Source: Acidimicrobiaceae bacterium (GTDB lineage: Bacteria > Actinomycetota > Acidimicrobiia > Actinomarinales > Actinomarinaceae). From it: a DNA stretch of 64,000 nt. Within the stretch, counting starts at the first letter, position 1. Every line of letters starts with the position of its first letter. The notes below the pieces were generated by a model. It did not search any database. It had not been told where the DNA came from and saw only the letters and a list, made by a program, of their open reading frames with translations. Below, one piece after another: positions 1 through 25,012 of this stretch. The stretch covers positions 552-64,551 of the forward strand of contig JAOOBM010000004.1 in the NCBI GenBank assembly GCA_028404505.1. The letters run 5' to 3'. Made by a program: the position numbers and the translations under genes.

Positions 1-167
1 GAATGCCTGGATTTGCAGGAAAACTTACTGAAGATGAGATTTACGCGGTTGTGGTTTTTGAGAGAGTTGTATTTGGTGGGGGAAACACTGACGAAGTACT
101 CGAAGACTGTGGACTTCTAGAAACAGATGAGGAAATCACTACAGAAGCTATTGAGCCAACTGATTAA
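1..167 (+). CDS. c-type cytochrome, C-terminal fragment (5' end outside window)
   Basis: Frame 3 is open from the window edge to TAA at 165-167. It translates to MPGFAGKLTEDEIYAVVVFERVVFGGGNTDEVLEDCGLLETDEEITTEAIEPTD. The MPxF...ExxxxVV pattern resembles the axial-Met region plus C-terminal helix of class I cytochromes c. The heme CxxCH site would lie upstream and is not visible. Confidence 0.45.
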   Translation, partial: MPGFAGKLTEDEIYAVVVFERVVFGGGNTDEVLEDCGLLETDEEITTEAIEPTD

Positions 168-6135: not shown

Positions 6136-6953
6136 ACTTTAATTTTTAGATCATATAATTGATGTACTTGACCGCCAAAATTAAATTTATATTTTTCCTC
6201 ACCCTTTAAATAATCAAAATATCTTTTTTTATTATTTATACTGTTTTGCAATAACTGATCATTTAAATAAGTCCCCGTATTAAATTCTTCTAAAGAATGA
6301 TCTCTGCATGAGTTATAAAGATAATCTACGATTTCTGACTCGTATACAAAAGCTGAGGAAATCATAGAATCTTTATAGTTAATATAATATATATACCAAT
6401 TTTCTTGTTCGATTAGTGATCTATAGAAATCCTCAACTGTTTCAGTCATATACTTCCCTTTTGCACCTGTGGACTTCTTGTGTAATCTGACAAATTCATC
6501 AAAAATATCACTATTTTTGCTTTTTTCAAAAGAGATATCTACAAATTTATCATTAAATATTCTTTTCTTTCTCTTTAGCTCATGTCTATTTTTTTTAGAT
6601 AGAGCACTTAGGTATATTTCATAACTTTCAGGAAGCTCAAGGTATACAGATATATCACTTTTGACAATTTCAATAGAATTAAAAGTGTTTTGGTTTAAGA
6701 ATTCAGAAATCTGAAAGTAACTAAGAGAATCAAATTGAAAGTATTTTATTTTCAAGTCCTTGATTTGGTCTTCAGAAAAGTACGGTGTAATTCGATAGTC
6801 AGTAAAATCTCTATCAATTTGAAATTCAAGAGTGTTTGACTCCAACTTGTAGTAATCAAAAATAGCTTCTGATTTTGAATTGTTTAATTTTGCACCAGAT
6901 TGTGTGAACCTGATGTCAATAAATGGAGAGTTTGCTACTAAGTCTTTAACCAC
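6132..6953 (-). CDS. CelD/BioF2-like (FemAB-type GNAT) acyltransferase
   Basis: 273 aa. The C-terminal FDYLKGEEKYKFNFGG matches the characteristic (D)(F/Y)L(R/K)G.E.YK..(W/F)G ending of CelD-like acetyltransferase domains. Its stop overlaps the start of the GT4 gene 4996..6135 that follows it on the minus strand (operon with that GT4). Confidence 0.45.
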   Translation of the reverse strand: MVKDLVANSPFIDIRFTQSGAKLNNSKSEAIFDYYKLESNTLEFQIDRDFTDYRITPYFSEDQIKDLKIKYFQFDSLSYFQISEFLNQNTFNSIEIVKSDISVYLELPESYEIYLSALSKKNRHELKRKKRIFNDKFVDISFEKSKNSDIFDEFVRLHKKSTGAKGKYMTETVEDFYRSLIEQENWYIYYINYKDSMISSAFVYESEIVDYLYNSCRDHSLEEFNTGTYLNDQLLQNSINNKKRYFDYLKGEEKYKFNFGGQVHQLYDLKIKV

Positions 6954-10800: not shown

Positions 10801-11221
10801 CTTTAGAGCCCTTGGTTTAGAATATCTAAACAGAACTGATATCGTACAGAACCCACCTGAGGAATCACCTTCAGCACCTGTTCAAGAATCACCTTCAGCA
10901 CCTGTTCAAGAATCACCTTCAGCTTCAGTTGAGGAAATAACTGAACCAGTCGTTGAGATAAAAGAATCAGATCCTCCAAGTAGTTCTAAAACTTCAGAGG
11001 TTTCAAATGAAGTAAAAGAAGTGCAGTTTGTTACAAAAGTTAAAGAGGTTGATGCTTTAGACACAACTGAAGCTACTTCAAATTCAGTTACTACAGTGCA
11101 AGAAGTTCTTGGGGATATGATGGGAGACGCTCCTGCTTGTCCAGATTGTGGTCATATAACAATAAGGAATGGGTCTTGTTACAAGTGTTTGAACTGTGGA
11201 AACTCTTTAGGGTGTAGCTAA
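7829..11221 (+). CDS. nrdJ: adenosylcobalamin-dependent (class II) ribonucleotide reductase
   Basis: 1130 aa, GTG start 5 nt after AAGGAG. Class II RNR motifs: [90 protein letters not shown]. C-terminal Cys-rich zinc ribbon [21 protein letters not shown]. Confidence 0.92.
   Translation: [1130 protein letters not shown]
10862..10923 (+). repeat. in-frame 24-bp tandem repeat in the nrdJ C-terminal linker
   Basis: GAATCACCTTCAGCACCTGTTCAA occurs twice perfectly (10862-10885, 10886-10909), followed by a 14-nt partial third copy. It encodes [21 protein letters not shown]. Confidence 0.9.
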
Positions 11222-11271: not shown

Positions 11272-12153
11272 ATGGATTACATTTTGTTTAATAAAGGTGT
11301 CTTGCCCGAATATTTAAATATTTGTATAAATTCAATCTTAAGTGTTGACAAAAATGCAATAATTCATTTGATTACTGATCAAAAAACTCAAAAACAGAAT
11401 ATTAATATCGTAAATACAAATGACTATGAAGAGTTAGAATTTATGAAAGATTTTGTGATTAATTTGAAAAACCATGATATGTTTGAAAATCCCCTTTGGT
11501 TAACATCTCTTGAGAGAATATTTTACATCGAAAATTATCTAAAAGACACAAACATTAATGAGTTTGTTCATTTTGATAATGATGTAGTATTGTTCGAATC
11601 ATTTGAAGCAATTAAGAATAATTCGACATTTAATGAACAAGGTTTTCATCTTACTCCCCTAAACATAGAAAATATGGTTTTTGGCTACTCATACATGAAT
11701 TCAAAACAAGATTTTTCTAAAGTTTCATTAAAAGCTAAAGAAATAATTAAAAACTATAAACATTATTCAAATAAATTTAATCAAAATAAACCATTGAATG
11801 AAATGAAAATTATGTCAATCATCAATCGTACTGATAAAGATTTAATTAAGTCTCTAGATATTCTCCCATATGGAGACAAAAAACTTATTTTTGACCCAGC
11901 ATCATATGGTCAGTATCTTGGTGGCACTCATAGAAAGCCAAAAACTTTTTTTAGAAACAATTTTGCAACACAAGCGCATTATGTTGGTGCAGAGTTGATA
12001 TCAAAGAGGATAAGCGTCAAATTTAAAAAAAATATTCCTATAGTAACATCCGAATTGGGAGATGTATCAAAGCTAATAAATCTCCACATCCATTCAAAAA
12101 ATTTAAAAAAATTCCTTCCAAACGTTTATAAAAATTATATTTCTACTTTCTAG
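11272..12153 (+). CDS. putative GT-A-fold glycosyltransferase (DxD-containing), family unclear
   Basis: 293 aa, soluble. N-terminal beta-alpha-beta (YILFNKG..NSILSVDKNAIIHLITD) and FVHFDNDVVLFE (DxD-like). No confident family assignment. Confidence 0.35.
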   Translation: MDYILFNKGVLPEYLNICINSILSVDKNAIIHLITDQKTQKQNINIVNTNDYEELEFMKDFVINLKNHDMFENPLWLTSLERIFYIENYLKDTNINEFVHFDNDVVLFESFEAIKNNSTFNEQGFHLTPLNIENMVFGYSYMNSKQDFSKVSLKAKEIIKNYKHYSNKFNQNKPLNEMKIMSIINRTDKDLIKSLDILPYGDKKLIFDPASYGQYLGGTHRKPKTFFRNNFATQAHYVGAELISKRISVKFKKNIPIVTSELGDVSKLINLHIHSKNLKKFLPNVYKNYISTF

Positions 12154-13006
12154 TTTTATGAATAAACCCTGTTAGTCCATAAATAGAGTCAACAATTAGA
12201 TAAAGCATTCGAATATAAATAAGTGATAGGATTTCTTCAGATATTAAATCTTCTGTTCCAAGTAAAAAAATAAAAATTGCCTCTCTTATTCCAATACCAG
12301 CAGGAATTCCAACAAATAAAAGACCTACATAACTTGCGATCAAGTAATAAATTCCTTGATTTAGAAAATTTTCGTAACCTAAATTGAAAAAAATAAAAAA
12401 TGTTAAAAAATTTGTTGATAAGATTGTAACAGTCAAATAATTTGAAAAATTTAAAATAGATATCTCTTTGATTTTTTTATTAAAGAAATAAATAAATTTA
12501 AATAAATAAACTACCCCAAATTGAAGTAGTACTAAACCAAAATAAATATAGTCTTTATCTAAGAACAACATTCCAATTAAAAGTACAGGCAATGACAAGA
12601 TTGGTACTAAAAATTGTTCTTCAAATAAACCAAAAAGTATTCTTTTAGATTTATCTTGATTGCCATCTTGATTAAGTCTTATTGTAATCAAACCTACACC
12701 ACCAGGAAAATATTTGCCTATATTTGAATATGCCCAATCAAAAAAAATGTTCTTTTTATTTTCTTGAGTATTCTTTGTTGAAAACTTTACCCATGTAAGC
12801 CCAACAATAAAATAAATTATCATAAGGAGAATTATTTCAAAAAAATTGATCACTGCAATGTTAGTAATTTCTTCTTTGCTTGAATTAAATAGTACGCCAA
12901 TATAGACAATTGAAATAACTGCAACAAATATATTAAATTTTTTAAGCCTTTTTTGAAATTTATCTTCATTTAAAAGTGAAAATAAATTGTCTAACTTATT
13001 CTTCAT
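12143..13006 (-). CDS. UPF0104 / LPG-synthase-TM-type flippase-like membrane protein
   Basis: 287 aa, polytopic. FPGGVGLITIR and the C-terminal GIPAGIGIREAIFIFLLG resemble the paired P-x-G-x-G-x-(R/E) motifs of this family. Its start overlaps the stop of the upstream GT2 gene. Confidence 0.5.
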   Translation of the reverse strand: MKNKLDNLFSLLNEDKFQKRLKKFNIFVAVISIVYIGVLFNSSKEEITNIAVINFFEIILLMIIYFIVGLTWVKFSTKNTQENKKNIFFDWAYSNIGKYFPGGVGLITIRLNQDGNQDKSKRILFGLFEEQFLVPILSLPVLLIGMLFLDKDYIYFGLVLLQFGVVYLFKFIYFFNKKIKEISILNFSNYLTVTILSTNFLTFFIFFNLGYENFLNQGIYYLIASYVGLLFVGIPAGIGIREAIFIFLLGTEDLISEEILSLIYIRMLYLIVDSIYGLTGFIHKTRK

Positions 13007-13955
13007 TTCTTATAAATTCATTTCTTATTGACTTCTCTTCTTTAAAAGACTCAACAAAAATAAAAATTGTAAAAAATGAAATTAATAAAAGAATTAATGC
13101 CCAGGAACCAACAAATGAAGTATTAAAAAACTGTATTGAGCTAAAAATGAGTACAAATCTTATAAAAATAAGAAGAGTTAAAAATAAAAATGTTAAAAAA
13201 AGAATATCGAGAAATGCTGAACGTTGATATTTTCCAATTAACATTTTGTTTTTGATTTTTAATATTAAGAAATGAAAAGTAAGTCTTATTAAAGTAAAAA
13301 ACATTTTAATTGAGCTCAAATTGCTTTTTTGATTTCCATAGGTGATCGTATTATTTATTTGAAAAATTTTAAAAAATGAAATTGCAGATAATGATGAAAA
13401 ATAAAATGGATAACCATATCTTTTTGGGTAAACATTTCTTTGTATATAATTTAAAACTTTTACATTTACACCAAATAAGCCATTCAGCGGGTCAAACAAT
13501 TTATTTGTTCCTGATACAAATTGCAAGATCATTGTTGCAAATAAATTCCCAAAATAACGCTTATTTGGAATTTTTCCTTCTATCCCTTTTTCCCAGAATC
13601 TATTTGATTTGATAAAATCGTAGTTATCTTCATTAAATAAACGAATCATTTTTTTTACATCATCTAATTTAAATTGGTTATCGCCATCTACTTTAATTAA
13701 GTATTCAAAACCATCGTCTTTAATTTTTTCAAGAAGCTTTAGTGTTGATGATCCAGCACCTTCATTTTTAATATTTTCAATAATTGTGAATTTTAAATCT
13801 TTATTTAAATTTTTTATAATACTTGGTGTTTTATCAGTACTAAAGTCATCCAATACATAAAAATCGACATTTAAAGAAGAGATATCTTTTATTACTTTTT
13901 TGATGTGTGATTCTTCATTATGTGCAAGAATTCCAATAGCTATTTTATTTTTCAT
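12996..13955 (-). CDS. GT2-family glycosyltransferase with C-terminal TM helices (polyprenyl-phosphate sugar synthase-like)
   Basis: 319 aa with IAIGILAHNEESHIKKVI, YVLDDFSTDKT, VDGDNQ (DxD) and two or three C-terminal hydrophobic helices as in GtrB/ArnC/DPM1-type enzymes. Confidence 0.75.
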   Translation of the reverse strand: MKNKIAIGILAHNEESHIKKVIKDISSLNVDFYVLDDFSTDKTPSIIKNLNKDLKFTIIENIKNEGAGSSTLKLLEKIKDDGFEYLIKVDGDNQFKLDDVKKMIRLFNEDNYDFIKSNRFWEKGIEGKIPNKRYFGNLFATMILQFVSGTNKLFDPLNGLFGVNVKVLNYIQRNVYPKRYGYPFYFSSLSAISFFKIFQINNTITYGNQKSNLSSIKMFFTLIRLTFHFLILKIKNKMLIGKYQRSAFLDILFLTFLFLTLLIFIRFVLIFSSIQFFNTSFVGSWALILLLISFFTIFIFVESFKEEKSIRNEFIRNEE

Positions 13956-15819
13956 TATTTTTTTCCCAATTTTTTACAATTGATTCCTTTTTAAAATTAT
14001 TTAGGTTGTCTATTACAAAATCATAATCAACATCTATTAGTTGACAATAATTTTTTATCAGGTCAAATCTTGGTTGATTCTCGTAGTGTATTCTATTTAA
14101 AGCTTCTTCTCTTGTGAGATGTCCTTCTCTTATTTGATTACTCCTATAAAAATCATTTTCAGTAAACCCTGCATAAATCCAGTAAATGTAATTATAAATC
14201 GGTGAAGTTCCATCGCCTATTCTCCAAGTAGTTGGAGTCGAGGGATCACATTCCCACATAAATTTTTCAAACAAATATTTATTAACTAAGTCTTCGTTGT
14301 ATTCTTTATATTCAAATAATGAAACAATGTTTCTGGTTTGAAAATAATACGAGAAAAACCCTTTAATTGTATCAAAAAAAGATGAATTAAAATATCTTGG
14401 ATTAAGAATAAAACTTTTTAAGTAAAAAATTCCTAATTTGAAAATCATATAATATCTGTCGACTTTACTAGAAATATTTTTACTTGAAAATACAGGTTTT
14501 ACACCAGCAAATCCATATTTAAAATATGTATGCTCAAATGGACTTTGAAATTGAACTACATAGTTTGTTTGTTTGTTGCTTGCAGCATTAAATAATTGTT
14601 TTTGCCATTCTTTGTCACCAGCCATAAGTAAAGGGACAAGTCCGATGTTTGGTTTTGAAAGCCATGCTAGAAAGTTTTTTTTAATATTTTTCCTTTTTTT
14701 ACTTATATTCGCTGAAACCCAAACATGCTCCACCCCTAAATTTCCAACTACTCTAGCTTGATTTCTTCTTGCTAAGTCAGTCACCATTCCCCAATCGTAA
14801 GATACAGCAACAAAATTTGAATCTAAACTATTCTTCAGGATACCTAGTCCATATGAACTATCTCTTCCTCCAGAAAATCCAACAACAATATTTTTCTCGT
14901 TTTTTAATATGTTTTTGAAAACTTCAAAGTTTTCCAATAATGGTTGTTTGTGTTGAGTACAATAGTTACAAATATCATTTTTATCAAACTCAATAAAGGG
15001 GACTGTTTGAGGTAAAATGCACTTTTTACATCTAGTCAAAACTGGTTTAATAATTTCCCTATTTTGATGTCTTTTTAATATGTCATCAAATTGCACAACA
15101 TTTTTCTCAATTCCTAAACATTGTTCCTTAAACTTATCAATTATTTCAAATTCAGAATTTATAATCAATCCAGTATTTGCTTGTAGCTTCTTAATCTCAC
15201 CTTTTATTGAATACTTTTCTTTTATTTTTTTGGTTATCCACTCTTCAGATGTAAAGAAGATAACTTTATTGTTTTCAATCACAAAATAAAGTGATCCAGT
15301 ATTGGTGTATAAAAAATAATTCTCCCCATTATTTATACTCCCTGCAATTGATATTTCTCCAGAAAAAGCTTTTATTGCTTCTGTTAATGAAATCAGTAGA
15401 TTATTTTTTTCTAAATGGTGACTTATCAATAATGGAATAACTTCAGAATCTAATTCGCTAACTACATTTAATTTATACTCTTCAACTAAATCAGAGTAGT
15501 TAACTAAAATCCCATTATGCACAACTGATATTTTATTTGAGATAACAGGTTGATTGTTTATCTCTAAACCCTCGTCACCATGGGTTTTTAATCTAGTATG
15601 ACCAATGAGTGTATTTCCATTTTTGTTTAATTGAGAACTAAGTATATTTTTCTTAACTAAATTATCCGAGAAAGGAAGAGGGAATTTTTGTACTTGTTGT
15701 TTACCTTGGTTTATATTTATATATCCGGATGCTTCTTTTCCTCTAGTCTCCGAATATTTTCCAATATCGTAAAATACCTCGGAATCATTTAAATTGAAAT
15801 AACCAAATATTCCACACAT
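13945..15819 (-). CDS. fusion of class II (Ntn) glutamine amidotransferase with WbpG-type N-acetyl-sugar amidotransferase (PP-loop ATPase)
   Basis: 624 aa. Residues 1 to about 225 carry MCGIFGYF (Cys2 nucleophile), GHTRLKTHG and VVHNGILVN. Then come a zinc ribbon (CKKC at 264-267 and CNYC at 284-287) and the PP-loop GFSGGRDSS (316-321), the layout of WbpG-like LPS amidotransferases. Confidence 0.65.
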   Translation of the reverse strand: MCGIFGYFNLNDSEVFYDIGKYSETRGKEASGYININQGKQQVQKFPLPFSDNLVKKNILSSQLNKNGNTLIGHTRLKTHGDEGLEINNQPVISNKISVVHNGILVNYSDLVEEYKLNVVSELDSEVIPLLISHHLEKNNLLISLTEAIKAFSGEISIAGSINNGENYFLYTNTGSLYFVIENNKVIFFTSEEWITKKIKEKYSIKGEIKKLQANTGLIINSEFEIIDKFKEQCLGIEKNVVQFDDILKRHQNREIIKPVLTRCKKCILPQTVPFIEFDKNDICNYCTQHKQPLLENFEVFKNILKNEKNIVVGFSGGRDSSYGLGILKNSLDSNFVAVSYDWGMVTDLARRNQARVVGNLGVEHVWVSANISKKRKNIKKNFLAWLSKPNIGLVPLLMAGDKEWQKQLFNAASNKQTNYVVQFQSPFEHTYFKYGFAGVKPVFSSKNISSKVDRYYMIFKLGIFYLKSFILNPRYFNSSFFDTIKGFFSYYFQTRNIVSLFEYKEYNEDLVNKYLFEKFMWECDPSTPTTWRIGDGTSPIYNYIYWIYAGFTENDFYRSNQIREGHLTREEALNRIHYENQPRFDLIKNYCQLIDVDYDFVIDNLNNFKKESIVKNWEKNNEK

Positions 15820-15863
15820 ATCTAATTAAGCTTAATATTAGAAATTGTTAAAAAAATTAAATT

Positions 15864-17444
15864 ATGATTAATAAAAAACAAATAATTTCATCAATTGTTT
15901 TATTTATAATTATCTCTTTATTTTTTCGAATAGATTTTAGGTTTAAAGATACAGTTGAATGTTGCTCCGATGATTTTGATTATTTTTCACATGCTGAGAC
16001 CATAGCAATTGATATGGATTTTGACTATTCAAACCAACTACCGCCCAATCATTCATTCATTTTTGAATACAATGGAAAAATTTCACCTGTTGGATTTCCT
16101 GGAACTGGAATTCTTGCGTCACCTTTTTTGTATTTCGGAAATATTATTGATAAAAATTTAAATTCTGGAAATGGAGATGAAGTTTTAAATTATAAACTTT
16201 TGTTGTATTCACTCTCGCCAATTTTTTATTTATTTATTGGATACATATTAGTTTTTAAATCGCTCATTACTCTTAATTTTGACGTAGATAAATATAAACT
16301 CTTAGTTTTAATTAGCGGTTCGGGAATTACTTACTTTGCTTTTGAAAGATTTAGTATGACTCATAGCTATGAGTTTTTTACATTATCTTTATTAATCTAT
16401 TCCACAATAATATTTTATAAAAATGGAAATAAATTACATGCATTCATAGTTCCAATTTCATTGATGGTTTCATTGCTAGTTAGGATGTCGAATTATTACA
16501 TATTTTTGCTTCCAATAATAGTTAAGTTGATTTACAGCAAAGAAAACCAAACAAAATTTAGTTTAATAAAAAATCGCACATTCATATTTTCTACTACATT
16601 AAGTATTTTTATCTACAACTTTTTGTCAAGAAGCATTTATGGAAAATTAGTTATTAATCCTCAGGAAGTATATGGTACAGATATATCTGTAACAAATGTT
16701 GTTCCAAACAACAAGGGTTATGTAGATTTCTTATTAAAAAGTATTTTAGATTCGTTTAGAGTTATTTTTGGAAACGAGTTTGGTATTTTTTGGTTATCAC
16801 CAATTATCTTTGCTGGTCTTGCTCTTTCAATATTAAATCTCAAAAATTATAAAAATTTTGGAAATATATTACTATTAATTTGTTTTGCTCAAAATTTTGC
16901 AATTTTAATTATTTGGCAATCTACTGGTGCATCATATGGGTTTAGGTATTTGTACTCTTTGGTCCCAATATGTGTAATTATTTTTTATTATTATAAAAAA
17001 ATATTTAAACAAAAAATATTTTTTAATTTCATATTTTTAATGTCAATATTTTCAAATTTATCAATTTTATTTTTTGAGACCACAGAACAAACACAACTTT
17101 CTATAGTTGAAATCATAAATTCATTCGGAGCACTAAGAAATTATTCAGAGCCAGCATATGTAACAGGGGTTGTAAGATCTTTAACTGAGATTAACAGTTA
17201 TTTGATAATTTTTACGACGAGCTTAGTTGGGGTCATTTTCTTTAAATTACTGTTAATTATGTTTGATGTATCTGTATTGATTAATTTCTTAAATACTCTT
17301 GGCCTTCCAACTGAAAATCAAGATTTTATATTATATTTAGAAAACCTTGAGATCATATCAGTCAATAAAATCTTATTAATCATTTTATTTCTCTTTTCAT
17401 TTTGTTATTACGTTGTCTTTAGGCTTAATGAACCAAAAAAATAA
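15864..17444 (+). CDS. large polytopic membrane protein, GT-C-like glycosyltransferase candidate
   Basis: 526 aa, more than 10 hydrophobic segments. An acidic motif sits in the first loop (CCSDDFDYFSHAE...DMDFDY), like the DxD/ExD of GT-C enzymes. A late motif GASYGFRYLYS is shared loosely with other membrane ORFs in the window. Confidence 0.4.
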   Translation: MINKKQIISSIVLFIIISLFFRIDFRFKDTVECCSDDFDYFSHAETIAIDMDFDYSNQLPPNHSFIFEYNGKISPVGFPGTGILASPFLYFGNIIDKNLNSGNGDEVLNYKLLLYSLSPIFYLFIGYILVFKSLITLNFDVDKYKLLVLISGSGITYFAFERFSMTHSYEFFTLSLLIYSTIIFYKNGNKLHAFIVPISLMVSLLVRMSNYYIFLLPIIVKLIYSKENQTKFSLIKNRTFIFSTTLSIFIYNFLSRSIYGKLVINPQEVYGTDISVTNVVPNNKGYVDFLLKSILDSFRVIFGNEFGIFWLSPIIFAGLALSILNLKNYKNFGNILLLICFAQNFAILIIWQSTGASYGFRYLYSLVPICVIIFYYYKKIFKQKIFFNFIFLMSIFSNLSILFFETTEQTQLSIVEIINSFGALRNYSEPAYVTGVVRSLTEINSYLIIFTTSLVGVIFFKLLLIMFDVSVLINFLNTLGLPTENQDFILYLENLEIISVNKILLIILFLFSFCYYVVFRLNEPKK

Positions 17445-17512
17445 TTGGGATAAGTTATTGTAAAAATTAAAAAAGTAAATAAATTATAAAGCTTTATATA
17501 CTTTAGAAATTA

Positions 17513-17586
17513 GGGCGCTTAGCTCAGTCCGGCAGAGCGCTTCCCTTACAAGGAAGAAGTCACAGGTTCAAATCCTGTAGCGCCCA
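17513..17586 (+). tRNA. tRNA-Val (anticodon UAC)
   Basis: 74-nt cloverleaf folded by hand: acceptor GGGCGCT/AGCGCCC, D arm GCTC-AGTCCGGCA-GAGC, anticodon arm CTTCC-CTTACAA-GGAAG (anticodon TAC), variable loop AAGTC, T arm ACAGG-TTCAAAT-CCTGT, discriminator A. CCA is not encoded. Confidence 0.92.
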
Positions 17587-17675
17587 CAAGGGTTTTTCAG
17601 AAATCTTTACATATATATGTGCCTCAACCCCACACCAACCCCACATTTTGCTTAAATTTTTGTAAACTTTAAATT

Positions 17676-17846
17676 ATGAAATACAAAAAAAACTTAGGTG
17701 CTTTATTAGTTTTTTTAGCTTTAACCGGGCAAGCATTTGGCTCTCTTAACTCTAGCTACACTCCAACTCAAGCAATCCTTGTTGTTCTGTTTGCGTATCT
17801 TGGACTTCAATTAACTTACTTCGTTTATTTTAAAAATAACAAATGA
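17676..17846 (+). CDS. small (56 aa) secreted/membrane protein, not in the supplied ORF track
   Basis: ATG at 17676. Translates to MKYKKNLGALLVFLALTGQAFGSLNSSYTPTQAILVVLFAYLGLQLTYFVYFKNNK, i.e. a signal-peptide-like helix plus a second TM helix. Its TGA (17844-17846) overlaps the ATG (17843) of the next gene, suggesting translational coupling. Confidence 0.45.
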   Translation: MKYKKNLGALLVFLALTGQAFGSLNSSYTPTQAILVVLFAYLGLQLTYFVYFKNNK

Positions 17847-19264
17847 AAATCAAATTAATTTTATTACTTGTTTTTCTCATTTCTTGTGGTTCAGAGACTT
17901 CTACTGAAAATCTTAATCAGGTTGAGAATGATGAAGATGAGTACCTGGAAGAAGAGTATGAAGAGGATTCAGATGAAGAAGAGTATGAAGAGGATTCAGA
18001 TGAAGAAGAGTATGAAGAGGATTCAGATGAAGAATCATTATATGATGAATACGGAGAATGGGATAAAGGTACAACGTATTTTGATACCTCATCATCAACA
18101 AGTACTGGATGGTATATGGGTCAAGGAACGGATCGTGAAGAACACGTCCATGAAGGTATGCAGACATTAGATGGAGGATTTATAGCTATTGGTCATCACT
18201 GGGAAAAAGAAGAAGACCCAACTGGATTTACAGATATGATCATTTTAAAAACCGATTCTAAAGGTAATGAGTTGTGGCAGACAATTATTGGAACTCCAGA
18301 CAAGTTTGATGTGGGATATGCAGTGAATGAATTATCCGATGGATATGTTGCCGGTGGAGGTCTTTATAAAGATGGATTTCAAAAAAGTGCAATTGTAAAA
18401 CTTGACTTTAATGGAAATATAGTTTGGCAGAAAATATTTACGCATAATGGTGTTGGTGGAATTAGAGGGATAGAAGTTATCGATAATGACGAAATCGTTG
18501 TTACTGGTTACAAAGAAGGAGATGAAGAAGGGTTTTTATTCATTTCTGATGGATCAAAAGGTTTTATAAAGAAAATGTCAACAGATGGTGAGGTAATTTG
18601 GGATAAAGACTTGTCTGCTATGCAAGGTACAAAAGTTAAGCAAACATCTAAAGGTGGATTCGTAGTCGGATCTGTTGAGTGGGTTGATGAAGGTTTAAAT
18701 GCATCAATGCATTATTTAGACCCAAATGGAAATACACTCTCAACTAAATTATTCGGAGGCAATAATAATGTGCAGTTGTTTGACATGGACATTACAAGCA
18801 ATGACTATGTTGTGTTTACAGGACATACAACGGGATACCAGACTGAAAATTGGGATTGCATTGTCATGTTAATTGATGATCAAGGAAATGAAGTTTGGAA
18901 AAATATCTTTGGTAATCCAAGAGGTTATGACCCAAAATTTATTCTTGATGAGTGTTATGGGGTAAGAGAGACCCTTGATGGAGGATTTGTAGTGACAGGT
19001 GGTACCGGTGATCATTCAGATTATTCTGGCACAGGGCATCCAAATGGTACATCTGATGATTGGAAAATATTATTATCTGAGTTTGATAAAGATGGCAATA
19101 TGACATCAATTAATGTTTTTGGTGGTGGTCTTGATAAAGGAAATGATGCTGGAGAATTTATTGATGTAACCTCTGATGGTGGATATATTATTTTTTCAGA
19201 CACCGATTCCAAGGGTTTAAAAGGACCAAATAATTTTGGTTTTTTATATATTAAAAACTCATAA
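17843..19264 (+). CDS. lipoprotein with acidic tandem-repeat linker and about 7-bladed beta-propeller-like repeat domain
   Basis: 473 aa with signal peptide and lipobox FLISC (Cys15) and (EEEYEEDSD)x3. Then about 55-aa repeats: DGGFIAIGH / DGYVAGGG / EIVVTGY / GGFVVGS / YVVFTGH / DGGFVVTGG / DGGYIIFS. Each is followed by a D..GN.(V/I)W-type strand (KGNELWQ, NGNIVWQK, DGEVIWDK, QGNEVWKN, DGNMTS). Confidence 0.7.
   Translation: MKIKLILLLVFLISCGSETSTENLNQVENDEDEYLEEEYEEDSDEEEYEEDSDEEEYEEDSDEESLYDEYGEWDKGTTYFDTSSSTSTGWYMGQGTDREEHVHEGMQTLDGGFIAIGHHWEKEEDPTGFTDMIILKTDSKGNELWQTIIGTPDKFDVGYAVNELSDGYVAGGGLYKDGFQKSAIVKLDFNGNIVWQKIFTHNGVGGIRGIEVIDNDEIVVTGYKEGDEEGFLFISDGSKGFIKKMSTDGEVIWDKDLSAMQGTKVKQTSKGGFVVGSVEWVDEGLNASMHYLDPNGNTLSTKLFGGNNNVQLFDMDITSNDYVVFTGHTTGYQTENWDCIVMLIDDQGNEVWKNIFGNPRGYDPKFILDECYGVRETLDGGFVVTGGTGDHSDYSGTGHPNGTSDDWKILLSEFDKDGNMTSINVFGGGLDKGNDAGEFIDVTSDGGYIIFSDTDSKGLKGPNNFGFLYIKNS
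17948..18028 (+). repeat. perfect 27-bp x3 in-frame tandem repeat (possible VNTR)
   Basis: GAAGAAGAGTATGAAGAGGATTCAGAT occurs three times without mismatch (17948-17974, 17975-18001, 18002-18028), followed by a partial GAAGAA. It also creates the spurious shadow ORFs 17868..18170(+) and 17913..18167(-). Confidence 0.95.
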
Positions 19265-19357
19265 GTAAATGTTCTTCTCCTGTTGACTAATCAATCTTCT
19301 GAATCAAATATGAATCTGACACGCATTCGAAACATTTTTTAAATAAAATGAAATTAT

Positions 19358-20794
19358 ATGAAGAAAGTTATAATTTTTTTTCTATTAATTTCTTTTTGTG
19401 GAGGCTCATCGGAATCTACGTCTACACAACTACAACAAGATCAGAAATTATCACAAGAAAAGGTAAGTGATGAAGGTTCTCAAGATTCCAAGCAGACTGA
19501 TTCTAATGAACAATCTAGCTCGTCATCCAATCAAGAATCTGGGAACCAGAGTCAAAGTAGCGGGTTGACAATACAAACACTTCCAGACATAAAAGAGTTT
19601 ATAACAAATAAAAGTGATAGATTTTTTGTTGATTTTGAAGACATTATTGCAGGACATCCTTATGTAGGTAAACGATCACCAAGACCACATAATGATGCGC
19701 AAGTTTATTTTTCAAATACAGATCCAAGATGGAGAGAGGCAACAAAACCATCGGATTTTCCACCACTCTACGCAGTAGCAGATGGAATTATTGAGCTGGC
19801 ACAAGGAAATGGGTCATATTATAACGTTGTGGACCATTCAGACTCAGACCCTCCCTGGTGGCACTCTGCTTACTTATTCAAATTAAAATTTGCACAAAAC
19901 GATGGCAATGTTGTGAGCTTTCTGTATCAGATGGAAGGATATGTTATTAAAGATGATGAAAACTTCTTCAGAGATTATATTTTAGTTGAAAATGGTCAAG
20001 TTGTTAAAAAAGGTGACATCTTGGGATATATGTATGTTCCAACACTAGAAGAGATGGTTGGAACCATGCAGGGCTCAAGCCATATTGCTTTTGCCCTTAT
20101 GGAGAAAAGAGGTACAAGTAAAGAACAAGAAATGGCACCAGCAATTTTTACTGAAGAAATCGTTGAACAGTTTTCGAATTTATACAGAAATCCAAAAGAA
20201 GGTTGGGAGAGTACAAGTTATGGTAACGACTGGGCGAGAGGAAGAGGACTCCCAAGTTCGATGGGTTGGTACATCGGACCAGAAGAACATCCATTTGGAG
20301 GAGAGTACCTGGATGTAGTCTTATATGGTGACGAAAGAGACGCTAGCCTGGATCCAAAACAAGAAATACTATCCACAGACCTTGGGTTTCAAACAGATAA
20401 TTATATATTTAACCAACATGGACATGGCAATGCAACACTTGATTTACCATTCTCTGATAACTCAAAAGTTGACTTTGTAGTTGTAACCAATGGGTCTCCT
20501 GTTAATTTAAAATTTATTTTTACAGAGAATAATGGAGACAAACGAGAGGCAGGTTTTATCAATAAACGAAAAGGTATGGGATATATGTATCAGTATTATG
20601 AAGGTTTTGGTGTTAACTCAAATACGAAATTAGTTATTGAAGATCCAGAAAACTGGGGATGGTCTGTTGCATTTGTTGATGCTGGAACATCTGTTATTAT
20701 TCCAGGTCAAACAAGAACCGTTCAGCCTAAATGTCCCCCAGGGTGTCCTCCCTCACCCAATCCTTATAAATTAAATCAATCAAAAGACAAATAA
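19358..20794 (+). CDS. lipoprotein with Ser/Gln-rich linker; possible degenerate LytM/M23-like barrel; function unknown
   Basis: 478 aa with signal peptide and LISFC (Cys14)-GGSSE, then a low-complexity S/Q/E linker to about aa 70. A central segment (YAVADGIIELAQ ... VENGQVVKKGDILGYMY ... GSSHIAFAL) loosely follows M23 peptidase topology but lacks clear HxxxD/HxH metal ligands. C-terminal CPPGCPPSPNP. Confidence 0.6.
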   Translation: MKKVIIFFLLISFCGGSSESTSTQLQQDQKLSQEKVSDEGSQDSKQTDSNEQSSSSSNQESGNQSQSSGLTIQTLPDIKEFITNKSDRFFVDFEDIIAGHPYVGKRSPRPHNDAQVYFSNTDPRWREATKPSDFPPLYAVADGIIELAQGNGSYYNVVDHSDSDPPWWHSAYLFKLKFAQNDGNVVSFLYQMEGYVIKDDENFFRDYILVENGQVVKKGDILGYMYVPTLEEMVGTMQGSSHIAFALMEKRGTSKEQEMAPAIFTEEIVEQFSNLYRNPKEGWESTSYGNDWARGRGLPSSMGWYIGPEEHPFGGEYLDVVLYGDERDASLDPKQEILSTDLGFQTDNYIFNQHGHGNATLDLPFSDNSKVDFVVVTNGSPVNLKFIFTENNGDKREAGFINKRKGMGYMYQYYEGFGVNSNTKLVIEDPENWGWSVAFVDAGTSVIIPGQTRTVQPKCPPGCPPSPNPYKLNQSKDK

Positions 20795-20806
20795 AATATA
20801 ATCTTT

Positions 20807-20873
20807 CTTCCCTTACAAGGAAGCAGTCACAGGTTCAAATCCTGTAGCGCCCACAAGGGTTTTTCAGAAATCT
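20807..20873 (+). repeat. direct repeat of tRNA-Val 3' half plus 20-nt flank (att-like)
   Basis: CTTCCCTTACAAGGAAGCAGTCACAGGTTCAAATCCTGTAGCGCCCACAAGGGTTTTTCAGAAATCT matches 17540-17606 with one mismatch (C at 20824 versus A at 17557). Confidence 0.92.
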
Positions 20874-20930
20874 AGGTAAAAAATACTTTTTCGCACACAC
20901 ATTGAACACACATTTTGAGATAATTTAATT

Positions 20931-22781
20931 ATGCGACGAATATTTGGAATAATTTTAATGTTTTTAATTTCATTTTGTGGCGGAAGTGAAGTTTCAAATA
21001 ATGATTCATTGGTATCATCTACTATTACAACTGTTGTAGATTCAACTATAACAACTCAAGAATCGTCCACTACTTCATCTACAACGACTACAAATATTTC
21101 TGATGCTACTTCCTCAGATAATAAAAATAAATACGAAAACATTAATTCAAAATTTATTTTTGATAAAGATAGTTATCCTAGTGTGGAATGGAGTCAAAGT
21201 TTTGAACTAATTGAGCTGGATAAAAGTTGTATCAATAATTCTACATTCAATCAAAATATTAATTTTTCTGTTGATACAAAAATTAACTTTGAAAAAATAT
21301 TTTCAAAGTCTTTTGATGAAATAATGCGTGATGATATTTTTGACATACAGAAATTAACTATTGATGAAAATATCCAAAGCTATGAAGGATTGGAGTATTT
21401 AACTTGCTTGCAATATCTTGATGCAGGACAAGGTTTTAAATTTTGGGGAAGAGATTATAGGTTTTTGTCGAACCTAACAGAGTTAAGATATTTAAATTGC
21501 AAATTTTGTACTCACTTAAGAGCTGAGCATTTATATCCTTTAGATAAGTTGGAATACCTTATTACTCCAGCTGGATTTAAAAATACAAGTATGCTCCACA
21601 AATTATCAAATTTAAAATACATTGATTCGCAAAGGAGTGAAGGTAGCTGTAACGATTACGACTCTTTAAATAATTTAGAAAACTTAAAAGAACTATATTT
21701 AGGAAACTCTGATCTTTCTTTTTACTTAAATAATGATTATGAAAACAGTAATGAAGATTTTGTATTCTCAAAAAGTCCTACAGGAAAATATATAGAACTT
21801 TTAATCAAAGATGGTTATGATTCGTTTTTTACTGATTTTTCTAATCCTGACTGGACAAGTAATCCAACCGGATTCTACAACAGAAACTATATGGCTAAAT
21901 TAATGAATGCTTTATATAAAGAAATTAGTGATGAATATGAAGTGGTAATTTTTGTTGGTAACAGATTAGACAGTATTCGATCATATAATGGAATGGCGCA
22001 GTATATTAGCAACAATGAACCAGGACTTAGTTTTCCTATTTACTCATCTGCAGAATGTTTTGGATCAAGTGGTAAATTAAGAGGAAATCTAATCTTTCCA
22101 TCATTAAATTCTTTTTTTAATTCAACCACTACAACATATGATTGGGGTGATTTTACATTTGTCAATGCTCCATTACTTCATGAGCTATTCCATCTTTGGG
22201 GTGGTGCTGATATTCTTCCGTATCATCAAGTTTATGTAGACGAACCAGGTGCAGGTACTGGACACTTTGGTTTTTCAACAGGAGGTATTTTAGGAGGATT
22301 TAACAATGAATCACTTAAAGAACTTGGAAATAACGATTACCAAGTAGATTATTTTTATACAGATGGAAATGGTGCAGATACCAAAATGGGTAACATTGAA
22401 AAATATATTATGGGGTTACTTCCTAGTAGTGAGCTGGGTGATCTATATGCATTTATAGGTAACCCTATTGTAGTTGATGAATATTGTGAAAAAACTTTAG
22501 GTAAAGAAGATGTGTTTTCGATATGTTTCAATGCAAATAAAAAAATTACGTATACTGTCGAAGATTTAGAACAATTATATGGAAAAGTAGAAATTAAAAA
22601 TACAAGAAGCGTATCGACATTAGTAGTTTTTGTAACTGATGAAAAAGCATCTGAAGAAGCTTGGTCAACACTTGATCAAAAAGTGTCTTGGTATATTGAA
22701 AATATTACAAATGATGATGGTGGATATAATATTTATGAAGCTTCTGATGGATTATTGGAATTAAATTTTCCAACTCCATAA
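20931..22781 (+). CDS. lipoprotein with Thr/Ser-rich linker, leucine-rich repeats and metzincin-type zinc-peptidase motif
   Basis: 616 aa with signal peptide and LISFC (Cys16)-GGSE and a T/S-rich linker (STITTVVDSTITTQESSTTSSTTTTN). LRR-like units: LEYLTCLQYLD, LSNLTELRYLNCKFC, LDKLEYLI, LSNLKYIDS, LENLKELYLGNSDL. HELFHLWGGAD (22179-22211) fits HExxHxxGxx(H/D). Confidence 0.65.
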   Translation: MRRIFGIILMFLISFCGGSEVSNNDSLVSSTITTVVDSTITTQESSTTSSTTTTNISDATSSDNKNKYENINSKFIFDKDSYPSVEWSQSFELIELDKSCINNSTFNQNINFSVDTKINFEKIFSKSFDEIMRDDIFDIQKLTIDENIQSYEGLEYLTCLQYLDAGQGFKFWGRDYRFLSNLTELRYLNCKFCTHLRAEHLYPLDKLEYLITPAGFKNTSMLHKLSNLKYIDSQRSEGSCNDYDSLNNLENLKELYLGNSDLSFYLNNDYENSNEDFVFSKSPTGKYIELLIKDGYDSFFTDFSNPDWTSNPTGFYNRNYMAKLMNALYKEISDEYEVVIFVGNRLDSIRSYNGMAQYISNNEPGLSFPIYSSAECFGSSGKLRGNLIFPSLNSFFNSTTTTYDWGDFTFVNAPLLHELFHLWGGADILPYHQVYVDEPGAGTGHFGFSTGGILGGFNNESLKELGNNDYQVDYFYTDGNGADTKMGNIEKYIMGLLPSSELGDLYAFIGNPIVVDEYCEKTLGKEDVFSICFNANKKITYTVEDLEQLYGKVEIKNTRSVSTLVVFVTDEKASEEAWSTLDQKVSWYIENITNDDGGYNIYEASDGLLELNFPTP

Positions 22782-22791
22782 AAAAACGACT

Positions 22792-22833
22792 CTTACCTTA
22801 CAAGGAAGACGTCACAGGTTCAAATCCTATAGC
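22792..22833 (+). repeat. decayed third copy of the tRNA-Val 3' half
   Basis: CTTACCTTACAAGGAAGACGTCACAGGTTCAAATCCTATAGC aligns to 17540-17581 with 3 mismatches (22795, 22810, 22829). Similarity is lost inside the acceptor-stem segment. Confidence 0.7.
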
Positions 22834-22900
22834 AAGCAGAATAATCATAAATTAATTTTTATAGATATTTAATCTAAAATCACCTCTGTAAGATTGTCTT

Positions 22901-23578
22901 ATGGAAAATAATAAAGATATCCATGCACTTGAATCAATTGATGAACTGGATAATTATAATAACTACATATATAGAAAAATATTAAGACACATACAAACTG
23001 GAACAAATTTAGATTTTGGATGTGGGTTTGGAAATTTTTTAAAATTTGTAAAGAGTGAGACTAATTTAAGTTTTGAAGGTTATGAAGTTAATAGTACTGC
23101 AATAGAAAAGCTTAGAAAAGAAAATATTCCATATGTCGAAAACATTAAGAATTCAAAAAAATATGACAATATTGTTTCTATAAATGTTTTAGAACACATC
23201 GAGAATGATACAAAGATTTTAAAAGAGTTAAGTAAGATTATAAAACCAGGTGGCAAGCTAATATTGTATTTGCCACACTCTATGATTCTTTGGACAAAGT
23301 TAGATAGTTTGGTTGACCACCATAGAAGATATACTAAAAAAGACTTGTTTGAAAAGCTTAAGAAAAGTAATTTTGAAATAGATTCTGTTGAGTATGTTGA
23401 TTTTATTGGTTCGTTAGTTCTTATAATTTTTAAAATTTTAAGAATCAATCCTAACTACAGTAAAAATCGTTTAATTTTTTATGATCGTTTAGTGTTTAAA
23501 ATTTTTAAATTTCTTGATATATTTACAAGAAAAATTTTTGGAAAAAATATTTTAGTTGTTGCAAATGCCAAAACGTAA
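22901..23578 (+). CDS. class I SAM-dependent methyltransferase
   Basis: 225 aa with motif I LDFGCGFGNF, VSINVLEHI and post-motif II KPGGKLILYLP. Confidence 0.75.
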   Translation: MENNKDIHALESIDELDNYNNYIYRKILRHIQTGTNLDFGCGFGNFLKFVKSETNLSFEGYEVNSTAIEKLRKENIPYVENIKNSKKYDNIVSINVLEHIENDTKILKELSKIIKPGGKLILYLPHSMILWTKLDSLVDHHRRYTKKDLFEKLKKSNFEIDSVEYVDFIGSLVLIIFKILRINPNYSKNRLIFYDRLVFKIFKFLDIFTRKIFGKNILVVANAKT

Positions 23579-24263
23579 AGACATAACACTCACAGCAATA
23601 GTGCCTGTATTTAATGAAGAATTATTTTTAAGAAAATCCATAAAAAGACTATTAAATGAGAATGTTGTTGATGAGATCTTTATTATAGATGACTGTTCGA
23701 CAGATGGATCGAATCAAATTATTGACGAACTAACTAAAGAATACAATTCAATAAAAAAATTTCAAACAAGTCATAACATGGGTAAGGGGGGTGCAATTAA
23801 AATGATTCAAAATTCAGTTAATACAAGTTACTCTATAATTCATGATGCAGATCTTGAATACTTTCCAAAAGATATTAAATATTTACTATCTGAAGTAGAT
23901 CAAGATAAGCCAACTTTTGTTATAGGGTCAAGATTTATTAATAATATTGAACCTCAAAATTATTACAGAACTTATTTTGCTAATAAATTTCTATCTTTTT
24001 TATTTTCATTTATACATAGAAGAAAAGTTACTGATATTGCCACATGTTACAAATTATTTCCAAATGAGTATTTTAGGAATACAATTTTAGAATCCAATGG
24101 TTTCGAAATTGAAGTTGAACTCGTTGCTAAATATTTAAAAAAATTCAAAAATATTAAAGAGGTAGGAATAGATTACGAATCAAGGACCTACGAGGAAGGT
24201 AAAAAAATCAAAACTCTTGATTTCTTTAGATATATATATGCAATATTGAAATATAGATTCTAA
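23556..24263 (+). CDS. GT2-family glycosyltransferase (short, soluble)
   Basis: 235 aa with LTAIVPVFNEELFLRKSI, IFIIDDCSTDGS and HDADLEY (DxD). Confidence 0.8.
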   Translation: MLQMPKRKDITLTAIVPVFNEELFLRKSIKRLLNENVVDEIFIIDDCSTDGSNQIIDELTKEYNSIKKFQTSHNMGKGGAIKMIQNSVNTSYSIIHDADLEYFPKDIKYLLSEVDQDKPTFVIGSRFINNIEPQNYYRTYFANKFLSFLFSFIHRRKVTDIATCYKLFPNEYFRNTILESNGFEIEVELVAKYLKKFKNIKEVGIDYESRTYEEGKKIKTLDFFRYIYAILKYRF

Positions 24264-24304
24264 GTTCGATTTAAAAATTTGATTAATACTTTTATACTTA
24301 TTTA

Positions 24305-25012
24305 ATGATTTCAAAAACAATTTATCAGACTTGGAGTACTCAAACTTTACCTGATAAGCTTGAAAAGCTTCATAACAAAATGAGACTTAAAAATTCTTCG
24401 TATGAGCATATAATTTATACGGACAGTCAAATGAATGACTATATAAATGCTAACGCTGATAAAGATATCAAAGATATTTATTGGAAAATGAAACATATTG
24501 TTGCAAGAGCTGATATTTGGCGATATACGATTTTATTCAATAATGGTGGTGTTTATCTTGATATAGATTCTCAGATAAATAATTCATTAGATGATTTGAT
24601 CCAAGATAACGATAGAGCAATTATCACACCAGAAATTCATGAAAACTTATTCATACAATGGGGGCTTATTTTTGAAAATAATCATATTATTCTTGAAAAA
24701 ACTCTTAACAATATTCTTGAAGATGTAAACAATGGTATAAATAGAAACGATCATCATGCTTTGACTGTTAAAAATTATGCAAAAGCTATTTTTGATGTTG
24801 CCAATGAAAACAATTTAGAATTTGAGTGGATTCATCCAGAAGAGCAGATAGATAAAACATATGAGTTTAAAAATTCTTCCTTCAAAATTGTTGGTAATGA
24901 TTACAACAGTCACTTCTCTTTTAAGCATAAATTTAATCATTTATTAAGAAACCGTCCAAAAGGTACTGTAGCTAGCACCCATTGGACACAACATGAAGGG
25001 TCAATTTACTAA
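24305..25012 (+). CDS. GT32-like glycosyltransferase (OCH1 / DXD sugar-binding region type)
   Basis: 235 aa. ISKTIYQTW at the N-terminus and RADIWRYTILFNNGGVYLDIDS match the conserved GT32 motifs. Confidence 0.6.
   Translation: MISKTIYQTWSTQTLPDKLEKLHNKMRLKNSSYEHIIYTDSQMNDYINANADKDIKDIYWKMKHIVARADIWRYTILFNNGGVYLDIDSQINNSLDDLIQDNDRAIITPEIHENLFIQWGLIFENNHIILEKTLNNILEDVNNGINRNDHHALTVKNYAKAIFDVANENNLEFEWIHPEEQIDKTYEFKNSSFKIVGNDYNSHFSFKHKFNHLLRNRPKGTVASTHWTQHEGSIY

Follow-up and report, generated by a model that had tools for sequence, protein, structure and literature searches.

A tRNA-Val attachment-site array in the glycan island of Candidatus Actinomarina, probably built by satellite tyrosine integrases

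Introduction

How does the 3' part of a tRNA gene come to be repeated between short runs of lipoprotein genes when no recombinase is encoded among them? This question is raised by a 64,000-nucleotide (nt) stretch of contig JAOOBM010000004.1 (positions 552 to 64,551; GenBank assembly GCA_028404505.1, Acidimicrobiaceae bacterium, family Actinomarinaceae), hereinafter the window, in which a tRNA-Val(TAC) gene is followed by two partial copies of itself that delimit two gene cassettes. In the surface ocean, Candidatus Actinomarina rank among the smallest and most abundant bacteria, and their genomes have been described as nearly free of mobile elements. It has been reported that tRNAs in the flexible genomic island fGI1 of Ca. 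Actinomarinales are targets for gene-cassette insertion (López-Pérez et al., 2020, mSystems, PMC7771536). The same work describes elements in a tRNA of AG-891-I09, called insertion sequence (IS) elements, and a prophage in tRNA-Val, and the word integrase is absent from its main text. Subsequently, a 2026 preprint ("Actinomarina, resolved") confirmed the tRNA-bounded hypervariable region and stated that the integration mechanism remains unidentified.

We consider it likely that the locus is an attachment-site array built by satellite tyrosine integrases that target the 3' part of tRNA-Val(TAC). The phenomenon as such is already published for this taxon, and the window locus is an unexceptional, partly decayed instance of it, for which our result is mostly confirmatory; new here are the satellites that carry the integrase, the exact attP and the architecture of matched arms in the cassettes.

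The tRNA-Val array in the window and its close relatives

The single tRNA gene of the window, detected with ARAGORN, and the three attachment (att) copies are as follows:

17513–17587, plus strand: intact tRNA-Val, anticodon TAC (ARAGORN)
17540–17606, plus strand: att copy 1, consisting of a 47-nt core (17540–17586) and a 20-nt flank CAAGGGTTTTTCAGAAATCT (17587–17606)
20807–20873, plus strand: att copy 2, core with 1 mismatch and exact 20-nt flank, 66/67 in total
22792–22833, plus strand: att copy 3, shortened 42-nt core (39/42) with the CTTACC variant

The first-pass annotation of this DNA had reported a repeat of the last 47 tRNA nt together with 20 nt of flank, present once with one mismatch and again in decayed form, and both recurrences are borne out. 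A repeat finder groups them in one family (D2) at 17540–17606, 20807–20873 (99%) and 22792–22858 (75% over 67 nt). The core begins precisely with the 5' strand of the anticodon stem and extends to the discriminator base. Copy 2 forms the junction between cassette 1 and cassette 2; in copy 3, the 20-nt flank and the final 5 tRNA nt are missing, its match being limited to the first 42 nt. A search with the 42-nt core allowing up to 3 mismatches yields exactly three sites in the window, which is AT-rich (GC 22–39%), compared to 0.00 expected from 100 shuffles, and no fourth tRNA-Val fragment is found in the 64 kb even at up to 10 mismatches. In functional terms, the tRNA gene is predicted to be an attL, the 5' part of which would belong to the host and the 3' part would have been regenerated by the adjoining element, and copy 3 is a terminal attR-like scar that abuts the flank with a methyltransferase gene.

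Both inter-copy intervals contain exclusively plus-strand open reading frames (ORFs), and the earlier statement that these encode only lipoproteins and one mini membrane protein agrees with the ORF list and the lipobox signals. The intervals were also said to be devoid of an integrase, within or beside them. Indeed, Pfam detects no recombinase in the window cassettes or the neighboring genes, and a tblastn search of the window with 24 members of the integrase family described below finds no integrase (best E 0.54).

A near-identical relative was retrieved through an exact look-up of the downstream methyltransferase: the single amplified genome (SAG) assembly GCA_902580845.1 (here L006; loci compared with the window are labeled in this way), in which the left and right flanks are 99.7% and 98.5% identical to those of the window. 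Between these flanks, the order of L006 is tRNA, GmrSD, copy, 173-aa protein gene, copy, genes for proteins of 56, 464 and 478 aa, truncated copy, methyltransferase. Thus, L006 has four copies, lacks the 616-aa protein gene of window cassette 2 and carries the GmrSD and 173-aa cassettes in addition. The blocks of homology between the two genomes end at 17618, span 17540–20848 and restart at 22791, that is, they break at the repeats. The 616-aa cassette is also missing from five further contigs (L007, L009–L011 and L015), where the 3' end of the 478-aa gene is joined directly to the terminal truncated copy. The tandem accretion at the tRNA that had been proposed from the window alone is supported by this repeat-bounded polymorphism.

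The junction located 5' of the methyltransferase (window position 22901) is variable as well. In L013 and L008, the core is truncated differently (…CCTGTA followed by AAGATAACAG), and L012 (1–160) contains no tRNA fragment, with a Thr-rich ORF extending to the conserved TCTAAAATCACCTCTG (compare L013, 1–141).

Integrase-bearing elements that share the attachment site

No tyrosine recombinase is encoded in the window cassettes, and it is found instead in related elements, namely those of AG-891-I09, L109–L123, L229 and L245. In the SAG AG-891-I09, a 6-kb insert located directly after the tRNA encodes a 366-aa tyrosine integrase (Pfam PF00589 at 5e-19), an HTH_3 protein, a DUF3631 protein (2.5e-17) and a 196-aa protein with a weak match to the Sf6 small terminase (8e-4). 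Homologs of this integrase form 24 clusters (42–100% identity) in marine metagenome contigs of 5.5–8 kb. The integrase-bearing elements, 5.5–7.8 kb in size, encode the integrase, a co-transcribed protein of 233–301 aa, helix-turn-helix (HTH) regulators, a DUF3631 protein and a small terminase subunit; in the PHROGs collection, proteins of 146 and 205 aa match small terminase subunit phrog_4102 (7.5e-18 and 2.4e-21, respectively). None of these elements carries capsid genes. Given this combination of an integrase, regulators, DUF3631 and the small terminase subunit gene (terS) without capsid genes, they look like phage satellites of the phage-inducible chromosomal island (PICI) type, and would presumably be packaged by a helper phage.

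At least two members of the family occur as closed circles. L109 and L110, from two Tara runs, represent the same 6242-nt circle in two rotations; they have 1 mismatch to each other and a 127-nt terminal overlap each, and this circle carries an attP. A 7224-nt circle is likewise present in two rotations, L115 and L116. In L121, L122 and L123, the right end, core and left end are joined, with an exact 47-nt core and an exact 20-nt flank CAAGGGTTTTTCAGAAATCT, and in L120, an element of the L121 type is integrated at tRNA-Val and is followed by two further partial copies. The integrated form and the joined attP thus share identical 47+20 nt. Integrase-bearing relatives with this very att sequence, which the first-pass annotation had proposed to look for, are accordingly present in both states, and, since such elements exist, its suggestion that the recombinase of the window cassettes was lost or is supplied in trans is a reasonable one. 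L229, a 7.8-kb integrase-bearing element with extra cargo, is situated between two partial copies, which indicates that secondary copies can serve as targets.

Not all members of the family use this site. The tRNA-Val core, or any tRNA-like Rfam match, is lacking in the circles and circle-sized elements L115–L119 (7224 nt), L244 and L248, which must use another attachment site, perhaps another island tRNA. Rfam families other than tRNA are found neither in the circles nor at the L006 junctions, so the conserved right arm described below is not a known RNA family.

Very degenerate partial copies (at least 6 mismatches), about 230 nt apart, are present in L138 (902–1128) and L064 (CACIJJ010000002.1, 5441 and 5718 in oriented coordinates), beside a short fragment resembling an integrase (32 aa, E 5e-6), and probably represent remnants of decayed satellites.

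Architecture of the cassette junctions

The sequences around the core are conserved across otherwise unrelated cassettes, with about 70 nt in the left arm and about 150 noncoding nt in the right arm. On the 3' side of the core, i.e., at the 5' end of a cassette, the 20-nt flank is followed by 12–16 variable nt, two tandem 11-nt repeats and, often, TTTTG; the 20-nt flank is present within 3 mismatches after 75 of the 107 copies in relatives. On the 5' side of the partial copies, i.e., at the 3' end of a cassette, the conserved module of about 150 nt consists, in this order, of two tandem 11-nt repeats, TCTAAAACTGTA, three GATAC-like repeats with a 10-nt period, a spacer of about 35 nt, TTGATACTCTCTGATACTACCTAGTATTTAATGGTT and the core. 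Relative to the core, the tandem 11-nt repeats are located at +40..45 and −134..−139.

The 11-nt repeats are element-specific: they vary among cassettes and differ across a single core copy. Tandems are present on both arms in 77 of the 97 cassettes that have a copy at either end, and in 71 of these 77 the two arms match (a shared 8-mer); when the pairings were shuffled 1000 times, the number of matches averaged 16.7 and never exceeded 29. The integrase-bearing elements show the same arm design, with repeat types TTTCCCCCACT in AG-891-I09, TCCCCCCAATA in L109 and AGACCCTTA in L121, and the types of L229 (TGACCCACATT) and L245 (AAAAGACACAA) also flank integrase-less cassettes; L229 additionally has the GATAC right arm typical of cassettes. 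The core is exact in L121, L229 and L245, and the 20-nt flank is exact in L121 and has 2–4 mismatches in L229 and L245; in AG-891-I09 and L109, it is replaced by a different flank (CCAATG...). Paired tandem repeats some 40–140 nt from a core resemble the arm-type integrase sites of lambda-like and L5-like attP. By analogy, the 11-nt repeats are candidate arm-type sites for the satellite integrases.

The window cassettes each contain an intact left arm:

17625–17646, plus strand: left-arm (P') tandem repeat of cassette 1, CAACCCCACAC/CAACCCCACAT, at +43 from the core
20893–20914, plus strand: left-arm tandem repeat of cassette 2, GCACACACATT/GAACACACATT

The CA-rich motif CACATTTTG that had been noticed upstream of the first ORF after each of the first two copies is real and corresponds to the end of the left-arm 11-nt repeat, with TTTTG after the repeat (17625–17646) in cassette 1 and TGAGATAAT after it in cassette 2, the same layout being found after most copies in relatives. 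The repeat type of cassette 1 flanks, on both arms, a mini-cassette in L028 (CACKFQ010000019.1) that consists of the 56-aa gene alone, with 426 nt between the cores and matching arm repeats. A related CACACAC repeat type is present on either side of an att copy in the metagenome contig L180, which ends in a 35-aa integrase fragment.

Some cassettes of about 390–430 nt are "empty", with matching arms and little or no cargo (L091, 2024–2466; L019, 7324–7753; and L028 with the 56-aa gene only).

Position of the crossover and mobility of the cassettes

At core positions 2–4, the tRNA has CTTCCC and the partial copies usually have CTTTCC, CTTACC or CATTCC, and each of these variants accompanies a particular family of right arms. 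The live tRNA of L091 shows a compensated change in the T stem (AGAGG/CCTCT) that the attP of L109 shares, and the displaced copy in L091 has CATTCC and the standard T stem. These two patterns map the crossover to the anticodon loop region, with the strand exchange most likely to occur between core position 5 and about position 23. In this zone, the two arms of the anticodon stem are a 5-bp inverted repeat separated by a spacer of 7 nt.

Several features favor mobility of the integrase-less cassettes, among them the conserved and matched noncoding arms and the existence of empty units. One integrase-less cassette, 741 nt long and encoding a 173-aa protein, is 96.6–99.1% identical in 7 genomes, 6 of which are GTDB species representatives; by definition, such representatives share less than about 95% average nucleotide identity. 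This cassette occupies array position 1 or 2, behind differing neighbor cassettes. On balance, mobilization of integrase-less cassettes by the satellite integrases, in trans or in cis, seems likely.

In the window, the ORF for the 478-aa protein stops 12 nt ahead of the next core and the conserved right arm is absent there; this right junction is identical in four genomes (L006, QCMT01000002, CACMHQ010000003 and the window). The ORF for the 616-aa protein ends 10 nt before the next core, again with no recognizable right arm. Given that they retain the left arms only, the window cassettes are probably immobilized and constitute fixed cargo.

Arrays and their cargo across Ca. Actinomarina

A scan with the att pattern, using one genome per species, matched about 65 Ca. 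Actinomarina contigs, with arrays counted within fetched tiles of 8–16 kb. A full tRNA was found on 40 contigs, 23 of which have at least one partial copy within the tile, with a maximum of 4 copies. The att sequence and the flanking genes recur in many Ca. Actinomarina single-cell genomes, and identical flanking proteins are encoded in SAGs. The window proteins themselves are identical to those of a marine Acidimicrobiaceae bacterium assembly with locus tag OAY10. The window array lies within a cell-envelope glycosylation island, and its cassettes are bounded by direct partial tRNA repeats and differ in gene content among close relatives.

The genes within arrays (50 on the strand of the tRNA and 18 on the opposite strand) fall into 57 protein clusters, mostly singletons, with two recurrent themes. 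One comprises anti-phage and nucleic acid-related functions, such as GmrSD, a ResIII/HSDR_N helicase, a C5 methylase, HNH, an Hsp70-like ATPase, NucS_C and T5orf172. The other comprises exported proteins, including a subtilase with fn3 domains, a trypsin-PDZ protein, and M10-like and mucin-like lipoproteins; the lipoproteins of the window belong here.

In two contigs, a partial tRNA-Val copy is located about 370 kb from the full tRNA in the opposite orientation: CACPPU010000001.1 (L035, 24–32 kb; L076, 392–400 kb) and JAYQJM010000005.1 (L066, 496–504 kb; L106, 864–872 kb). The distant copies retain 5 additional tRNA nt (GAGCG) on the left, and in CACPPU and several other contigs the copy adjoins a conserved pair of genes encoding proteins of 124 and 136 aa. 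An att-mediated inversion may have split an array in these cases.

In L006, partial copies taken together with the end of the right arm (5883–5939 and 6671–6727) score 32.4 bits with the Rfam tRNA model, for which the gathering score is 29, and the homolog of the window tRNA-Val scores 73.8 bits. Automated annotation may overcount tRNA-Val genes because of such copies; a figure of 3.7 Val tRNAs per genome is given in the 2026 preprint.

Proposed mechanism and alternatives

We propose the following scenario. A satellite tyrosine integrase would target tRNA-Val(TAC) between the anticodon stem and the 3' end and would catalyze integration such that the tRNA is regenerated from the copy carried by the element itself and the earlier 3' part is shifted downstream. 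Serial integrations would then produce the order tRNA, cassette, partial copy, cassette, partial copy. The integrase-less cassettes of 0.4–5 kb, which have a bipartite attP of the satellite type, would be non-autonomous relatives that are moved in trans or co-excised with a neighboring satellite, carrying anti-phage defense genes and exported proteases or lipoproteins as cargo. The two window cassettes (56+473+478 aa and 616 aa) would now be lost only through homologous recombination between the repeats.

Alternatively, homologous recombination might account for the entire turnover, with old tRNA scars serving as portable homology patches of 47–80 nt for RecA-dependent double crossover after DNA uptake and no integrase currently involved. 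This would fit with the lack of an integrase in most array genomes, with the report that the order is almost without mobile elements (López-Pérez et al., 2020, PMC7771536), with the 66/67 identity of window copies 1 and 2, which is sufficient for deletion, and with the missing right arms of the window cassettes. However, mere homology patches would not need the conserved arms of about 150 nt (right) and 70 nt (left), with their 71/77 matches; furthermore, integrase elements whose att sites are identical are present in the joined-attP as well as the integrated state, and the markers at core positions 2–4 and in the T stem indicate a fixed crossover zone. We accordingly regard an explanation by homologous recombination only as unlikely. 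We assign a slightly lower probability still to the involvement of a different recombinase, for instance, the integrase of a temperate phage that uses tRNA-Val, in which case the satellites would merely share the site. A 24-kb prophage is indeed inserted in tRNA-Val of AH-324-A03 (López-Pérez et al., 2020, PMC7771536), AG-891-I09 and L109 have the CCAATG... flank in place of the 20-nt flank, and the circles L115–L119, L244 and L248 of the same family lack the tRNA-Val core. Nevertheless, L121, L229 and L245 combine the exact core with a 20-nt flank that is exact or nearly so, and satellites share the repeat types TGACCCACATT and AAAAGACACAA with integrase-less cassettes and, in L229, the GATAC right arm as well.

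The view that the copies are tRNA pseudogene duplicates unrelated to insertion was raised in the first-pass annotation as an alternative; the copies would then stem from local segmental duplication. In its favor, the partial copies of L006 are just over the Rfam tRNA threshold (32.4 vs 29 bits). Only one copy folds as a tRNA, though, the sequences between the copies are mutually unrelated, the copies always start at the same tRNA position, and the presence/absence polymorphism bounded by the copies refutes the idea, so that its residual probability is negligible.

Several observations weigh against the satellite integrase scenario. Most arrays, like that of the window, lack an integrase. Trans-mobilization is unobserved: no free circle of an integrase-less cassette was found, with terminal overlap present in 0 of the 120 metagenome contigs listed, and the matches listed include no junction at which a core has identical arm repeats on its two sides (6 apparent cases turned out to be overlaps between similar motifs). 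The window cassettes show no signature of mobility beyond the repeats, the conserved right arm being absent. Copy 3 differs from the empty-site copy at 3 positions, and neither a simple gain nor a simple loss of the 616-aa cassette reproduces the sequences exactly. L121 and L122 are not exact rotations, each lacking a different 305-nt stretch, and for this element we therefore take the joined attP, rather than closure, as the evidence. Finally, the 42-nt att pattern has 0 matches in the viral contig collection IMG/VR, which does not contain these elements. The Tara runs that yielded circles, under PRJEB4419 and PRJEB1788, may be virus-size fractions, which would be the sole hint at packaging by a helper phage; a literature search could not confirm the size fractions.

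We also put forward, tentatively and with somewhat less than even confidence, the stronger proposal that the integrase-less cassettes are a distinct non-autonomous mobile class with a complete bipartite attP, the arm sites of which would be keyed to variants of the satellite integrase, such that satellites would drive an integron-like exchange at the tRNA in trans. If this is the case, defense genes and exported hydrolases would spread between species of a streamlined, abundant marine bacterium.

More generally, the only order-wide flexible island of Actinomarinales turns over quickly despite the reported near absence of mobile elements, and the hotspot described here trades anti-phage systems and secreted or lipoprotein hydrolases. 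Linking the tRNA-Val arrays to a concrete integrase family with a defined attP makes the mechanism testable by heterologous recombination.

Cassette genes and the glycan island in the window

The genes of the two cassettes and the adjacent clusters are as follows:

17676–17846, plus strand: 56-aa membrane mini-protein, first gene of cassette 1 (ORF list)
17843–19264, plus strand: 473-aa lipoprotein, cargo; the N-terminus consists of acidic tandem repeats, and DGGF/DGGY motifs recur
19358–20794, plus strand: 478-aa lipoprotein, cargo; named M23-family metallopeptidase by NCBI, Pfam match weak
20931–22781, plus strand: 616-aa lipoprotein, cargo of cassette 2, with leucine-rich repeats and an HELFH (HExxH) zinc-protease motif
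11272–17444, no strand assigned: glycan genes to the left of the tRNA, namely a glycosyltransferase (GT)-like protein, a membrane protein, a GT2 family protein, an AsnB-like amidotransferase and a 526-aa membrane protein
22901–25012, plus strand: genes to the right of the array, namely an S-adenosylmethionine (SAM) methyltransferase, a GT2 family protein and a DXD glycosyltransferase, at the start of a large right-hand glycan cluster

The three lipoproteins have lipobox signal peptides (LISC in the 473-aa protein, ISFC in the 478-aa and 616-aa proteins). The clusters of cassette genes at 90% identity have 402–670 members (402 for the 473-aa lipoprotein), in contrast to 25–42 for the adjoining glycan genes, and this difference suggests that the window cassette genes persist across many glycotype backgrounds. 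The cluster of the 56-aa protein (17676–17846) has a 365-aa representative and includes 423-aa proteins that JGI names "trehalose synthase", which looks like a clustering artifact or a gene-fusion call. Near the N-terminus of the 473-aa lipoprotein, positions 17916–18049 consist of a tandem 27-nt (9-codon) acidic repeat, EEEYEEDSD; the length variation among homologs (464 aa in L006 vs 473 aa in the window) may reside in this repeat.

The sequence TGAGATAAT at 20916–20924, located 7 nt ahead of the ATG start codon (20931), is similar to an extended −10 element, so a promoter and a leaderless start for the 616-aa gene are possible. A scan for sigma-70 promoter and terminator consensus sequences in 17400–23000 detected 14 promoter-like sites compared to 25.5 in shuffles.

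Given the presence of glycan genes on either side of the tRNA, the array is located inside the glycan island and not at its start. The earlier claims concerning this island fare accordingly: the 40-kb island does not start after the third repeat, because glycan genes are present upstream as well (11272–17444), and its suggested entry at this site is unsupported, with glycan genes on both sides and no distal fragment in the window. In many relatives, tRNA-Val directly follows the ribonucleotide reductase gene, whereas in the window 6 kb of glycan genes lie between the two. The B12-dependent ribonucleotide reductase of the window (7829–11221) contains a C-terminal low-complexity insert with repeated ESPSAPVQ, ahead of the final zinc ribbon-like CxxC motifs.

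Comparison with known systems

The arrays resemble integrons in that short cassettes of 1–3 genes, mostly in the same orientation, are lined up at one site with a recombination site at each junction. Identity with integrons is excluded: there is no intI in or beside the array, no attI and no common Pc promoter, and in place of attC hairpins the junctions contain tRNA 3' parts with direct, not inverted, repeats, i.e., the sites are tRNA-derived and have lambda- or L5-like arms.

A different parallel is provided by the cis-mobilizable elements (CIMEs) of streptococcal accretion-mobilization systems, which are att-flanked, integrase-less units in tandem with an integrase-bearing element and are mobilized in cis when the outer att sites recombine. 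Streptococcal CIMEs derive from conjugative elements, whereas the Actinomarina arrays contain no conjugation genes and no composite excision product was observed.

The integrase-bearing elements, as distinct from the window cassettes, have the gene set of PICIs and of the marine integrative mobile elements that are encapsidated in virions (VEIMEs): they are small and encode an integrase, regulators, a replication-associated gene and terS, but no capsid genes (Eppley et al., 2022, PNAS, PMC9618062). VEIME monomers range from <5 kb to 16.8 kb and are integrated in marine bacterioplankton, Actinomarina not being named as a host in the main text of that paper (PMC9618062). VEIMEs are virion-encapsidated satellites; for the Actinomarina satellites, helper-phage dependence and encapsidation are presumptive. 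Marine satellites of this kind and tycheposons are the nearest analogs in terms of mechanism.

The tycheposons of Prochlorococcus (Hackl et al., bioRxiv 10.1101/2020.12.28.424599), compared here by their published description, are tyrosine-recombinase elements that reside in tandem at island-associated tRNAs with partial tRNA copies between them, and the Actinomarina arrays show the same integration at island tRNAs and the same separation by partial tRNAs. Similarities extend to degenerate remnants, to the coexistence of PICI-like and cargo-carrying types, and to the reshaping of islands in a streamlined marine bacterium. The host phylum differs, the Actinomarina units are mostly very small and lack an integrase while displaying a full, conserved attP-like architecture, and the cargo consists of defense genes and exported hydrolases rather than nutrient-uptake genes.

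The closest counterpart is fGI1 itself, an additive flexible genomic island in which the organism group, the glycan island and the phenomenon are the same as those of the window array (PMC7771536). Not described in the fGI1 study, and added by the present analysis, are the anatomy of the att sites, the 20-nt flank, the repeats in the arms and the satellites that form circles.

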